From positions 1 through 32,631 of the IMG/VR virus record IMGVR_UViG_2778261165_000019: 32,631 nucleotides of DNA. One strand, written 5' to 3'. This DNA is from a virus. Lineage: Duplodnaviria; Heunggongvirae; Uroviricota; Caudoviricetes. Of the stretch, positions 27,001-30,000 are shown piece by piece; positions within the stretch are counted from its first letter, which is position 1; each line of letters begins with the position of its first letter. Position numbers: made by a program.

Positions 27001-30000
27001 GTACTTTGTTCTCATGATGATTCTGGCGAATACGCACCGGCTCAGTGCCGTAAAGCTGCGCTAAAAGTTCGGTGGTAATAACAGGAATCTGGTTATGGGT
27101 GATCGGGGAAAGAGTTTCAACAGAAATTTGAGTTGTCATAATGACGCCCTCTGGTGGTTTCTTAATAACTCACCACCGACGACGCCAATCGTCTGGTGGT
27201 GAACTGTGCAGGGTTGGCGTAACCGGGAAACCGACCGGCGCGGATCTCTCCGCCCCCACACAGCCCACCATAATTCAGATGCGCGCGCATACGACAATAA
27301 AAAACACGCTCGCGGCGTGTATCTGTCGCGGTCTCTATCCAGGACGCCAATCCCGACGCCAGATTTTGCTGGCGCGTGAGGAATATAGCCCCGGATAACA
27401 GATTGAGTCAACAGACGTTTTTTGAATCCCCGGAAGAGAATGCATCACGCATCGGCAGATAGAGCATAAACTCCGCCATTTTCAACCACGCATCTATGCG
27501 ATTACGGCACGTGGCGTAACACCACTCAGGGTGTGAATCATTCAGCAATTCAGCCATTTTTCGCTTAGTCATCCCCCTCCCTTCATATCGTTGCCGGAGG
27601 ATACAAATCAATCCTGGGTGTTCTGCCAGCACTTCACTAATCACACGATCAATGCATAACGCCTCTGCATCAGTACAATGCACCAGCCAGCTTTTTTGCT
27701 TGCCGTTGATCATATCCCGCAAAAAAGCCTCAAGTTCAGGTTTGTCCAGACCTGCGTTTTTCATCCTCCGGAGCGCCTCGTTAATTGCCGTTTTTGTCAG
27801 CTTTTTAGAGGTCAGCAACTGGTTGAACATATTTCCCGTCTTACCGCTGCCAATATACGACCAGCGCCCCCACATGCGCAGTTTTCCCTGAATCCAGACA
27901 CTTTCCAGCGTGGTGAGACGAAGGTGTTCCCCGCTTTTGCCTGTATTTGTTGGGTAAATCATAAATAACCTTCCTTTCTCCAGATTTCTTGCGTACGAAA
28001 AACACCTTCTGCATGCATCAGGCGTAATTCTTCTTTGGTGTAAGCGCTGGTTTTTACCCGCCCGTCGATTAAATCGTGGCATGAGCTACAGGCAATCGCT
28101 GCCTGCATATCGTGTGGTTTTGTCGCTGTTCCACACGTCCCCGCCAGCCTGTAATGCGCCAGCACGGACGTTTCGGGATTGTGATTGCAGTAGCCAGGAA
28201 TTCTGACTGTACACATCTGACCTTTTGCTGCTTTACGTAAATCCACCATTACGCAAACTCCAGCAGCTGCGCGGCCACATTTTCGACTTCCTCCGGAGAG
28301 GAGAATTTACGGAACAGGATCCAGTTCCACAGCACATTCAGTACGGCTTTATAAACCTGCTGAAACTCGGTTTCGTCCATATTCGCAAAAGCGATGGATT
28401 TCGCCCGACGCCCGTGGCTACCGTCCGGATAAATATGCTCGGTGTAAAATCCGGCCTGAATGGTTACCCACTCGCGGAAAGCGTCAAACGACTTTAGCAA
28501 TGCCGTATCCCGGGTTCTGCGTGTTGCAACTGTATTCAGATATTGCTCTGCGGCATCACTCAGGGCTGGCGTATGTTCCCGACCTACTGATTCGCACAGG
28601 TAATCAACGAAACCAGACAGCAGTTCTCGCTCGCAAGGCGTGATCGCCCCACCGACCGGAGTCCAGTAATCGAATCCCAGTTGCAGGAGTTTGAAAAAAC
28701 GCTTGTGGAATGCGTAGTTACGCACACGCTTAAAGTCTGCGTGTATCCACTCACCTATTTTGATTTGATGCAAAAAATCGCAACTCTCCGGCGTCGCCGG
28801 GAGAAGTAATCCGGAAGAGGTTTGTTTGACCAGTTGTATATGCGCCATCGTAGTTCTCCGCTGGCGCAGTAGAATGGGTGTTCAGCCCGTTATGTAGTAT
28901 AACAGAATTAATGCCAATACTAACAGGATGCTCTGACTCGCAATTCATCCAGCAGTTTATCATTTCCCATAATGTCACTTACCCTCATCGGTAAAAAAAT
29001 TGCCTTTCGACCATTACGATACATCATTGATTTTGGGGTTTCAGGGAAGTAATCCATTTCGACTATAACTGACAGGTCATCACGACGTATGACTGCGTAT
29101 TTGCTACTAAATAGTTTCTTTATTTTTTCCACGATGCCTCCAGGTTTATAAGTACAAAAGGTTATATCCACATAGAGACAAAAATATTAATCTGAAAAAT
29201 ATTTATTTCACGCCGTATATTTGATTGTTTAATGTGCAAGTACAATGACTTTTATTTTTTGTTGTGTATATAATCAAATATATGGTTATTTTTCACCCTG
29301 CGTATTCAGCGCGCAACAAAAAACCCGCCGAAACGGGTTAAGTGCGGGTGCGTTGAGGATGCCTGACACATCAGAGGTGGCGGGAGATTACTCTCCCGCC
29401 TGGTCACTCTTACTCTCTAGATTCGTAGTCTACGAAGACAGCGACCTCCGTCTGGCCGGTTCGGATTCGTACCTCGCAGAGGTCTTTCCTCGTTACCAGT
29501 GCCGTCACTATGACGGTTAAACAGATGACGATCAGGGCGATTAACATCGCCTTTTGCTGCTTCATAGCCTGCTTCTCCTTGCCTTTCGGCACGTAAGAGG
29601 CTAACCTACATTTGTGAGACATAGATTGGGCCTCAGATTAATGTTAAGCGTCTTGCAGGACGCATAATGTTAACTGGGGCTTTTCTCTATCTGCCGTTGG
29701 TGTTCATGCCCGAGGCAGATAGCCTCAAGCACCCGCAGCAATTCTACTTAACTCTCCTTTTCCCGCAAACCGTTTTTATCCCCAGCGGCAAATCGAATAC
29801 ACCACCAGCGCCACCGCCATCGCAATTCCTACCGTTGTGAATGCTTCAGGCCAGGTCATCACTTCACCTCCTGCGGCGGTTCTGGTAGCGGCATCCAGTG
29901 GGTTGCCTGCTCAATACCATTACCCGGCTTAATCGTTGCATCTCCGCGCCGAAAGGTGCTTCCGGTATAGCGTGCGGAGCATATTAGCGGTTCAACCAGA

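Follow-up and report, generated by a model that had tools for sequence, protein, structure and literature searches.

Does the hok-like locus of the prophage analysed here encode a complete toxin–antitoxin system, and does the AT-rich gene beside it belong to that system? The hok toxin–antitoxin family has been described since the 1980s. In the window (the whole stretch of DNA that was analysed; 32,631 nt, IMG/VR record IMGVR_UViG_2778261165_000019), the region from 29316 to 29768 almost certainly represents a complete hok/mok/sok type I toxin–antitoxin module of the HokD/HokW clade, located in the nin region of an Escherichia coli lambdoid prophage. The hokW/sokW type found in lambda-like prophages of E. 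coli has already been studied thoroughly, and the locus is an undamaged example of it. An initial annotation had read a hok/mok type I toxin locus within a prophage; every element of such a locus was found to be present and intact, and profile searches identified lambdoid neighbour genes (NinB/DUF1367, DUF551, holin, lysozyme and terminase). The locus was placed in the nin (delayed-early) region, with hok oriented in the sense direction within the pR delayed-early operon. Among 5426 complete E. coli genomes, 4731 match part of the query and 147 match over at least 80 % of it.

The toxin and its leader frame comprise the following elements:

29410–29565, minus strand: hok toxin gene, 51 aa, MKQQKAMLIALIVICLTVIVTALVTRKDLCEVRIRTGQTEVAVFVDYESRE (Pfam HOK_GEF, phrog_251, identity to HokW and HokD)
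29575–29580, minus strand: hok Shine–Dalgarno sequence AAGGAG, 9 nt ahead of the hok ATG (from sequence; invariant in 51 loci)
29410–29622, minus strand: mok frame, 70 aa, consisting of MSHKCRLASYVPKGKEKQA plus Hok (in frame with hok)
29631–29634, minus strand: mok Shine–Dalgarno sequence GAGG, 8 nt ahead of the mok ATG (from sequence; invariant in 51 loci)

The assignment of a Hok-family toxin was borne out by a match to the Pfam HOK_GEF profile (PF01848; E=1.1e-22, 79.8 bits with a cutoff of 22), in which 42 of the 42 profile positions were covered, and by a match to phrog_251, labelled 'MokW-like host killing' (E=3.6e-32). The deduced protein is 96 % identical to HokW of 933W/Sp5 and 92 % identical to K-12 HokD, and the ORF, when checked for inactivating changes, was shown to be intact. 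The protein scored beneath the cutoffs of the curated NCBIfam Hok models NF007279 (subfamily; 53.2 bits, cutoff 73) and NF007290 (HokA; 39.1 bits, cutoff 89), but both models represent other subgroups of Hok, and the RefSeq label for the identical protein, in a 99.9 %-identical locus, is still Hok/Gef family. The expected in-frame leader was also recovered, as the mok ATG at 29622 is located 57 nt upstream of the hok ATG and its frame stays open through hok. The mok Shine–Dalgarno sequence lies within the stem of a local hairpin (29595–29640; z=−3.5), the 7 nt loop of which (CUCACAA) carries a YUNR motif, and the positions of the mok Shine–Dalgarno sequence and ATG are conserved across related loci. 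Two other candidates within this region were rejected. A 91 aa plus-strand ORF (29245–29520) was set aside, being merely the antisense of hok and the hok 3′ UTR. Around Tyr47, a TadA-substrate hairpin is conceivable (arm UAGA-CUACGAA-UCUA); the local minimum free energy (MFE) fold, however, favours a different hairpin and is itself no better than that of shuffled sequences (z=−0.4).

No stop codon intervenes between the mok ATG and hok, so that ribosomes starting at mok necessarily make a 70 aa product unless they terminate first. The active toxin might then be this in-frame Mok–Hok fusion, with mok representing an alternative start rather than a coupling leader, a reading that draws on the in-frame arrangement, which the window shares with most of 54 related loci, and on the equivalent annotation in 933W. 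We nevertheless regard it as unlikely. In a minority of close relatives, mok–hok offsets of 56 or 58 nt place mok out of frame while its start position is kept, and in R1, where the offset is 58 nt, it suffices that mok is translated as far as the hok start (PMC9841398). Furthermore, hok retains its own strong and invariant Shine–Dalgarno sequence (AAGGAG), and mok codons 2–5 are hypervariable as protein, which argues for selection as RNA rather than as peptide. The 51 aa HokW was also shown to be toxic by itself when expressed from pBAD (PMC8621323).

The predicted transcript was delineated as follows:

29741–29768, minus strand: putative hok/mok mRNA promoter (read from sequence)
29316–29734, minus strand: predicted full-length hok mRNA, ~415 nt, from 5′ GGGUGCUUGAGG to the terminator T-tract (Rfam start, fold and conservation)
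29723–29734, minus strand: tac element, the 5′-terminal GGGUGCUUGAGG, partner of fbi (MFE fold, helix 1)
29346–29358, minus strand: fbi element CCUCAACGCACCC, 3′ partner of tac (MFE fold; also kept in K-12 hokD)
29379–29400, minus strand: post-stop hairpin GGCGGGAGAG-UAAU-CUCCCGCC (helix 16)
29322–29339, minus strand: intrinsic terminator stem-loop of the hok mRNA, then TTTTGTT (hairpin and T-run; compensatory changes in helix 17)

The leader matched Rfam model RF01794 over its full length (model positions 1–157 of 157; 115.7 bits, E=6.5e-26, gathering score 59). The match lies on the minus (hok) strand, begins at 29734 and ends at the hok AUG; the model therefore describes the mRNA leader, i.e. 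the complement of Sok. The putative hok promoter consists of a −35 hexamer TTGCGG (29768–29763), a 16 nt spacer and a −10 hexamer TAGAAT (29746–29741), which is separated by 6 nt from the G at 29734, and it agrees with the consensus at 8 of 12 positions. The MFE fold of the hok mRNA was calculated at −166.4 kcal/mol (z=−6.9), and when this structure was projected onto 51 loci, 96.9 % of cells were paired, with double-sided changes at 11 pairs compared with 6.3 in shuffles, and with compensatory changes in three hairpins. Three pairs of the post-stop hairpin displayed compensatory changes (GC, AU and GU) over these loci. The tac and fbi elements form the 12 pairs of helix 1, 99.8 % paired over the same loci, whereas covariation in this helix was uninformative either way among these close relatives, because the helix is almost invariant. 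The downstream terminator that had been proposed was likewise located.

The antisense component was predicted on the opposite strand:

29579–29607, plus strand: predicted Sok promoter (from sequence; −10 identical to that of sokW)
29614–29684, plus strand: predicted Sok antisense RNA, 71 nt (gap-free projection from the annotated 933W sokW misc_RNA)

A Sok-like RNA had been expected on the plus strand at approximately 29560–29680; the strand proved to be correct, while the range was refined to the two intervals given above. The Sok promoter is composed of a −35 hexamer TTGCCT (29579–29584), a 17 nt spacer and a −10 hexamer TAACCT (29602–29607), with 7 of 12 positions agreeing with the consensus. 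Neither this promoter nor that of hok was listed by the consensus promoter scan, because both are weak matches and fall under its threshold of 9/12. Column entropy across the Sok promoter was 0.06–0.14 in 54 loci, and the −10 hexamer is the same as that of sokW in 933W, which, judging from primers YO-421/422, is the hexamer replaced in a promoter-less construct lacking antitoxin activity (PMC8621323). The predicted RNA (−29.2 kcal/mol, z=−5.7) has a single-stranded 5′ tail of 14 nt (29614–29627), antisense to mok codons 1–3 and the Shine–Dalgarno–ATG spacer, followed by a hairpin (29628–29682) antisense to the mok Shine–Dalgarno sequence and upstream leader, and then a U-run (UUUU). At the level of sequence, a Sok gene is present: it has a promoter and a terminator of its own and is complementary to the region in which mok translation is initiated.

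Chromosomal hok loci of K-12 are known as decayed, non-functional remnants, and the window locus could in principle be another. K-12 hokD, which has no mok, sok or promoter of its own, is homologous to the window only from ~18 nt ahead of the hok ATG onwards, and lesions were observed in some relatives, with the mok ATG changed to ACG in one (L041) and mok truncated by a 56 nt offset in another (L007). Such decay is, however, very improbable for the window locus, in which the promoter hexamers, tac, the mok Shine–Dalgarno sequence and ATG, the hok Shine–Dalgarno sequence and ORF, fbi, the terminator, and the Sok promoter and hairpin are all intact. Moreover, the exact leader allele of the window is common to ten unique viral-contig loci, and across 54 loci a block from ~29745 to ~29325 is conserved, whereas its flanks are not.

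One short interval departs from this conservation:

29607–29631, no strand assigned: hypervariable patch in the conserved locus (column entropy, allele count)

This patch spans the mok Shine–Dalgarno–ATG spacer and mok codons 2–5, and also corresponds to the Sok 5′ tail. Its mean column entropy is 0.5–0.7, compared with 0.02–0.2 on both sides, and at least 15 alleles were counted among 54 unique loci. In two multi-locus genomes the co-resident alleles were all distinct (2/2 and 3/3), an outcome quite likely to arise by chance. We tentatively suggest, as a joint proposal, that this ~25 bp patch may represent a specificity cassette under diversifying selection and that pR read-through may switch Sok off. 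Were the patch such a cassette, polylysogenic E. coli could carry several hok/sok copies that do not neutralize one another, and the concentration of variation in the Sok tail could guide cross-talk experiments on co-resident prophage hok/sok copies. As regards read-through, the locus lies in the sense orientation in the pR delayed-early operon, so that read-through upon induction may act as the off-switch of Sok; silencing by promoter occlusion or titration would answer a question that PMC8621323 did not settle.

From its homology with R1 hok/sok and hokW–sokW, the window locus would be expected to operate through a stable hok mRNA of ~415 nt, starting at ~29734, which would at first be closed and untranslatable because tac pairs with fbi and the mok Shine–Dalgarno sequence is buried. 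Gradual trimming of the 3′ end would then open this mRNA, upon which ribosomes could load at the mok Shine–Dalgarno sequence and ATG, their passage permitting translation of the 51 aa Hok, which would insert in the inner membrane and kill or lyse the cell. The short-lived Sok of 71 nt would use its free 14 nt 5′ tail to pair with the region around the mok start, thereby blocking translation of mok and hence of hok, and the duplex would become a target of RNase III; Hok would be made once Sok is no longer synthesized. For the window locus, the sites of transcription initiation, the trimming of the 3′ end and the half-life of Sok are inferred. For R1, PMC9841398 sets out the mechanism with its tac/fbi pairing, mok coupling and 3′ processing, while toxicity and neutralization are known for the 96 %-identical HokW/sokW pair (PMC8621323), to which the window allele is probably analogous. 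HokW is toxic and localized in the inner membrane, and sokW, observed by northern blot, neutralizes it from its own promoter in a manner partly dependent on RNase III and Hfq (PMC8621323).

With respect to biological role, sokW was reported to vanish and HokW to appear upon RecA-dependent induction; hokW advances lysis and phage release on prophage induction, and deletion of the hokW–sokW locus halves phage release (PMC8621323). The 933W/Sp5 locus is located near the prophage end and not in the nin region, and this induction-linked role may therefore not transfer to the window. A role in prophage addiction or in abortive-infection defence against other phages, rather than in lysis upon induction, is possible, though we hold it to be the less probable function. 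R1 hok/sok lowers T4 plating, according to work cited in PMC8621323, hok genes are approximately four-fold enriched in prophages (preprint 10.1101/2025.08.07.668861), and the slots flanking hok carry toxin–antitoxin genes in some strains, i.e. relBE in K-12 and the Doc toxin in mouse isolates. Against this, hok is not enriched near defence systems (same preprint), PADLOC returned no match, and the only direct experiment on a close homologue pointed to a pro-phage role in release (PMC8621323). A point against the reading of the window locus as an active module is that chromosomal hok loci tested in the 1990s gave no post-segregational killing, according to a citation in the same preprint.

Downstream of the module, two further features were distinguished:

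29172–29315, no strand assigned: AT-rich spacer, ~25 % GC, from the hok terminator to the orphan gene (GC profile)
28920–29171, minus strand: small orphan gene, AT-rich, phrog_1813 family, ORF of 83 aa from GTG 29171 (PHROG match)

The initial annotation had described a very AT-rich 83 aa gene at this position, and its base composition (25–42 % GC, compared with ~50 % in the flanks) agrees with that description. Its likeness to Rem, by contrast, is one of position and nominal length only. BLASTP of the orphan protein against K-12 Rem (b1561) gave no alignment at E≤100, Rem was assigned to phrog_340 but the window ORF to phrog_1813 (E=1.3e-34; family function unknown), and two hhalign runs returned probabilities of 0.3 % and 0.1 %. 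The real start is likely the GTG at 29132, corresponding to 70 aa, as this codon is preceded by GGAGG, conservation begins at residue 14 and the PGAP product is 70 aa in length. Homologues were limited to 17 near-identical clusters, named hypothetical, of which all taxon-labelled members are from E. coli or Shigella; no match was found in Pfam, NCBIfam or PADLOC, and the AlphaFold2 model had a mean pLDDT of 42.5 and a pTM of 0.25. In the spacer, no minus-strand promoter-like site passed the 9/12 scan, and two plus-strand AT-rich sites in the promoter scan were no more than expected by chance. What the orphan gene and Rem have in common is their slot: each follows hok immediately, in the same orientation, within a lambdoid prophage. 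This slot varies among 73 viral-contig loci, being occupied by Rem in 22, a YgiW-like gene in 19 and a phrog_1813 gene in 10. The phrog_1813 gene and Rem are alternative, non-homologous occupants of one variable cargo slot, and the orphan gene is separate cargo outside the toxin–antitoxin module.

The value of these results is mainly one of annotation, namely of a complete, probably active member of a long-described toxin–antitoxin family, the closest relative of which, hokW–sokW, was already characterized experimentally in 2021. Exact coordinates are supplied for mok and Sok, neither of which is annotated by RefSeq/PGAP at the window locus, and the finding that the gene beside hok is not Rem is a useful correction.

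Among known systems, hokW–mokW–sokW of 933W/Sp5 (AF125520; PMC8621323) is the closest characterized relative, with ~96 % DNA identity to the window over 29336–29760. Both share the in-frame 70 aa mok, the Sok −10 hexamer, the 71 nt Sok with its hairpin, and tac/fbi. Conversely, 5 of the first 16 Sok nucleotides differ, as do mok codons 2–5 (SHKC against LNTC).

These differences in the Sok tail and in mok codons 2–5 therefore define a different Sok/target allele. The Hok C-terminus is RE rather than the EK of 933W HokW, the downstream neighbour is a phrog_1813 gene in the window but a YgiW-like gene in 933W, the terminator sequence of the window is absent from 933W, and the locus lies in the nin region in the window but near the right genome/prophage end in 933W/Sp5.

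K-12 Qin hokD (relF) shares with the window the hok Shine–Dalgarno sequence, 3′ UTR, fbi and terminator, and both are located in a lambdoid early-right region with an 83-codon small gene directly downstream. In K-12, however, the leader is missing altogether, with tac, mok, sok and a dedicated promoter, and relBE stands in its place. The alignment to hokD suggested initially thus supported the relationship at the level of Hok but revealed no homology in K-12 for the leader and sok; of the parallel drawn with Qin rem–hokD, the gene order stood (rem follows hokD immediately and in the same orientation), while the lost leader and sok of K-12 hokD and the unrelated Rem did not fit it.

R1 hok/mok/sok (parB) is composed of the same elements, i.e. 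a Hok/Gef toxin, a mok leader with its own Shine–Dalgarno sequence, and an antisense Sok made up of a free 5′ tail and a hairpin, and it also shares the tac/fbi 5′–3′ pairing and a target hairpin whose loop bears a YUNR motif (PMC9841398). Identity between HokW-type toxins and R1 Hok amounts to only 44 % (PMC8621323). The mok–hok offset is 57 nt (in frame) in the window and 58 nt (out of frame) in R1, where the mok and hok start codons are at 116–118 and 174–176 (PMC9841398). Compared with the Rfam consensus, the leader and Sok stem of the window contain an extra hairpin of 16 nt (GCGUCCUGCAAGACGC), and whereas the R1 system is carried by a plasmid, that of the window is carried by a prophage.

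The 51-aa ORF downstream of the mok start matched the whole Pfam HOK_GEF profile (E=1.1e-22; 79.8 bits, cutoff 22) and also PHROG 251, 'MokW-like host killing', which bears out the Hok-family toxin of the initial annotation. The in-frame mok leader and the downstream terminator proposed alongside it were likewise located:

29565-29410, minus strand: hok ORF, 51 aa, MKQQKAMLIALIVICLTVIVTALVTRKDLCEVRIRTGQTEVAVFVDYESRE (sequence, Pfam HOK_GEF and PHROG 251)
29622, minus strand: mok start ATG, in frame with hok, 57 nt before the hok ATG, opening a 70-aa frame (sequence)
29339-29322, minus strand: terminator-like GC-rich hairpin followed by a T-run (sequence)

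The mok ATG is preceded by GAGG on the minus strand at a spacing of 8 nt, and the hok ATG by its own AAGGAG 9 nt upstream. The surrounding genes (NinB/DUF1367 and DUF551, then Q-region, lysis and terminase genes) lie on one strand, the same as hok, a neighbourhood typical of a lambdoid prophage and in agreement with the prophage setting claimed earlier. Rfam model RF01794 ('sok') was matched end to end at 29734-29560 (115.7 bits, gathering score 59, E=6.5e-26). As this match lies on the hok strand (minus) and ends with the hok AUG, it is the hok mRNA leader that the model represents, not the antisense transcript; the match confirms the locus, but alone leaves Sok unplaced. The model carries the name 'sok antitoxin', and reading the match strand as the strand of the antitoxin RNA is wrong. 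All hok/mok/sok sequence elements are present and intact in the window, and the identification of this already known system is right and now precisely mapped.

Part of the 901-bp query DNA was matched in 4,731 of 5,426 complete E. coli genomes and at least 80% of it in 147, with RefSeq labels at the matching genomes being only 'Hok/Gef family protein' or 'HokD', plus hypothetical protein. All 901 bp were also matched, at 97%, by PP818812.1, 'Actinobacillus phage vB_Apl-pPE4' (host A. pleuropneumoniae). This host label is at odds with the query DNA, otherwise characteristic of E. coli lambdoid prophages; the record may reflect a wrong host assignment or contamination by an E. coli prophage. The hok locus also occurs on short contigs labelled as Xanthomonas, Veillonella and Haemophilus MAGs.

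The Sok antisense RNA was positioned by gapless alignment of the 71-nt sokW feature of the Stx2 phage 933W:

29614-29684, plus strand: predicted Sok RNA, 71 nt (alignment to sokW)
29579-29584, plus strand: predicted Sok -35, TTGCCT (sequence)
29602-29607, plus strand: predicted Sok -10, TAACCT, 17-nt spacer from the -35 (sequence)
5' end of 29614-29684, plus strand: Sok 5' tail, unpaired, 14 nt, GUGAGACAUAGAUU (predicted fold)
29628-29682, plus strand: Sok long hairpin (predicted fold)

Sok had been expected on the plus strand at around 29560-29680; the strand was correct and the range close, but shifted to the left of the projected RNA. From a comparison of primers YO-421/YO-422 with the native sequence, we infer that the promoter-less sokW construct, in which antitoxin activity was lost (PMC8621323), had this TAACCT replaced. 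The predicted Sok fold (-29.2 kcal/mol, z=-5.7) consists of a tail, a hairpin and a U-run, the tail being antisense to the spacer between the mok Shine-Dalgarno sequence (SD) and ATG and to mok codons 1-3, and the hairpin to the mok SD and the preceding part of the leader. The ~47-bp segment 29561-29607 combines the hok SD and start codon with the Sok promoter on the opposite strand. No other part is as widely shared with plasmid hok/sok loci; it is ~87% identical to hundreds of Klebsiella and Enterobacter plasmids, in which PGAP labels the overlapping frame 'DUF5431 family protein'.

The elements ascribed to the hok mRNA itself are as follows:

29768-29763, minus strand: -35-like TTGCGG of the putative hok mRNA promoter (sequence)
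29746-29741, minus strand: -10-like TAGAAT of the same putative promoter (sequence)
5' end at 29734, minus strand: tac, first 12 nt of the mRNA, GGGUGCUUGAGG (pairs with fbi in the predicted fold)
29358-29346, minus strand: fbi, CCUCAACGCACCC (pairs with tac in the predicted fold)

Both hexamers stand before the G at 29734, where the RF01794 match begins, and the fold of 29734-29322 reached -166.4 kcal/mol (z=-6.9). In plasmid R1, tac/fbi closure holds the hok mRNA untranslatable until its 3' end is trimmed (PMC9841398). For pair counts we used 51 related loci, comprising the window, 933W and 49 viral-contig loci, across which 96.9% of cells formed pairs compared with 33-41% when partners were slid, the former figure being inflated since the window was itself the source of the structure. 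Double-sided changes were found in 11 pairs, compared with 6.3±1.4 in shuffles, and were concentrated in the first hairpin at the 5' end, the one after the stop codon (29400-29379) and the terminator. The tac/fbi helix is conserved and nearly invariant in these loci, and covariation cannot support it. Locally, the mok SD and AUG are predicted to lie within a hairpin with a YUNR motif in its loop of 7 nt, CUCACAA; a YUNR loop is reportedly (work of Franch and colleagues, 1999) a feature for rapid Sok recognition in R1.

Within hok, the Tyr47 codon TAC is followed by G (29424-29427, minus strand), and this TACG is invariant in the 51 loci. It lies within UAGA-CUACGAA-UCUA (29418-29433), where a hairpin similar to the anticodon arm of tRNA-Arg(ACG) can be drawn (4-bp stem, 7-nt loop); the local MFE fold around Tyr47 does not favour this hairpin (z=-0.4). 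TadA A-to-I editing, converting Tyr to Cys at this position, has been reported for hokC/D/E (preprint 10.1101/2025.08.07.668861).

The mok and hok start codons of R1 (positions 116-118 and 174-176) are 58 nt apart and out of frame (PMC9841398). The window, 933W and most of 54 unique related loci have a distance of 57 nt, and translation from the mok ATG would therefore yield an N-terminally extended Hok of 70 aa. That this longer protein is made and active seems unlikely: a few relatives have an offset of 56 or 58 nt with the mok ATG position unchanged, and mok codons 2-5 are hypervariable among related loci, both of which fit the conclusion from R1 that the act of mok translation matters, and not its product.

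Across the 54 unique loci, conservation extends from ~29745 to ~29325, and both flanks diverge. The sole strongly variable patch within this block, 29607-29631, falls exactly on the 5' tail of Sok together with the start of mok, spans mok codons 2-5 and is represented by at least 15 alleles; among the first 16 Sok nucleotides, five differ between the window and 933W alleles. The leader allele of the window was also found joined to different Hok C-termini, showing mosaic recombination. Two genomes of the species-representative set harbour multiple loci (E. coli with two, S. flexneri with three), and in both the co-resident alleles are all distinct, as orthogonality would predict, but this is also likely by chance with so few cases.

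Downstream of hok, the AT-rich 83-codon neighbour described initially was recovered, lying in DNA of 25-42% GC compared with ~50% in the surroundings:

28920-29171, minus strand: phrog_1813 ORF, 83 codons, downstream of hok (sequence)

Its supposed relationship to Rem was not sustained. BLASTP of the ORF against Rem gave no alignment, the two proteins were assigned to different PHROGs (phrog_1813 and phrog_340, respectively) and hhalign returned probabilities of only 0.3% and 0.1%; Rem homology was rejected on these three results. The likeness drawn to the Qin rem-hokD arrangement thus holds for position, as rem (83 aa) is the next gene after hokD in K-12, in the same orientation, but not for protein similarity. 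Among 73 viral-contig loci, the slot after hok was occupied by a Rem homologue in 22, a YgiW-like gene in 19 and phrog_1813 in 10, with no tested query gene in the remainder, and the next gene past the slot in viral-contig hok loci was of the YdfU or NinB type. Accordingly, rem and the phrog_1813 gene represent alternative cargo in one variable slot. The slot was noted at 29172-29410 in the window and among loci L004-L083, and some E. coli isolates from mice carry a Doc-family toxin gene inserted there. The phrog_1813 protein is represented by 17 known clusters, named hypothetical, every taxon-labelled one being from E. coli or Shigella. It is conserved from residue 14, where a GTG with GGAGG upstream would start the 70-aa product called by PGAP. 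No match was obtained in Pfam, NCBIfam or PADLOC, and the AlphaFold2 model was unusable (pLDDT 42.5). Going by AT-richness and slot only, we would guess it to be a 'moron' gene, expressed early or in the lysogen.

Further elements were observed beyond the hok promoter and the cargo slot:

29776-29859, minus strand: hydrophobic ORF, 27 aa, MTWPEAFTTVGIAMAVALVVYSICRWG, just upstream of the hok promoter (sequence)
27299-27375, minus strand: isrK (Rfam, 75.5 bits)
27192-27275, minus strand: C4 antisense RNA (Rfam, 66.7 bits)
27336-27388, minus strand: a1/b1 target of C4 antisense RNA (Rfam)

The ATG of the 27-aa ORF overlaps the TGA stop of the DUF551 gene by one base, and 43 of 75 viral-contig loci, as well as 933W, have a homologue upstream of hok; no family match was found. 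The isrK/C4 elements (27192-27388) adjoin an ORF6N-type gene (26528-27139), with which they constitute a P1/P7-style antisense-controlled antirepressor module in a lambdoid prophage.

The mokW-hokW-sokW locus of 933W/VT2-Sakai shares ~96% DNA identity with window positions 29336-29760, and at the protein level the window Hok has 96% identity with HokW and 92% with K-12 HokD. HokW is toxic, is located at the inner membrane and is neutralized by sokW expressed from its own promoter, with partial dependence on RNase III and Hfq; upon RecA-dependent prophage induction, sokW RNA disappears and HokW appears, while deletion of hokW-sokW delays growth arrest and halves phage release (PMC8621323). By analogy with R1 and hokW, the hok mRNA of the window would be made in a closed form and slowly trimmed at its 3' end, whereupon Mok-coupled Hok translation would follow unless the mRNA is bound by Sok and cleaved as a duplex. 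Once Sok is lost on induction, Hok would be free to permeabilize the inner membrane ahead of holin and endolysin. Since the locus lies in sense orientation inside the delayed-early operon, antiterminated read-through could act on Sok; we suggest that on induction it could occlude the convergent Sok promoter or titrate Sok. If true, this would explain the RecA-dependent disappearance of sokW, left without explanation in PMC8621323, although the location of the 933W locus elsewhere in its genome weakens read-through as a general explanation.

Homology to K-12 hokD, in contrast, starts ~18 nt before the hok ATG and extends through the terminator, with relBE occupying the place of the promoter, tac, mok and sok of the window. 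The window therefore carries the locus in complete form, whereas Qin has retained just its 3' part.
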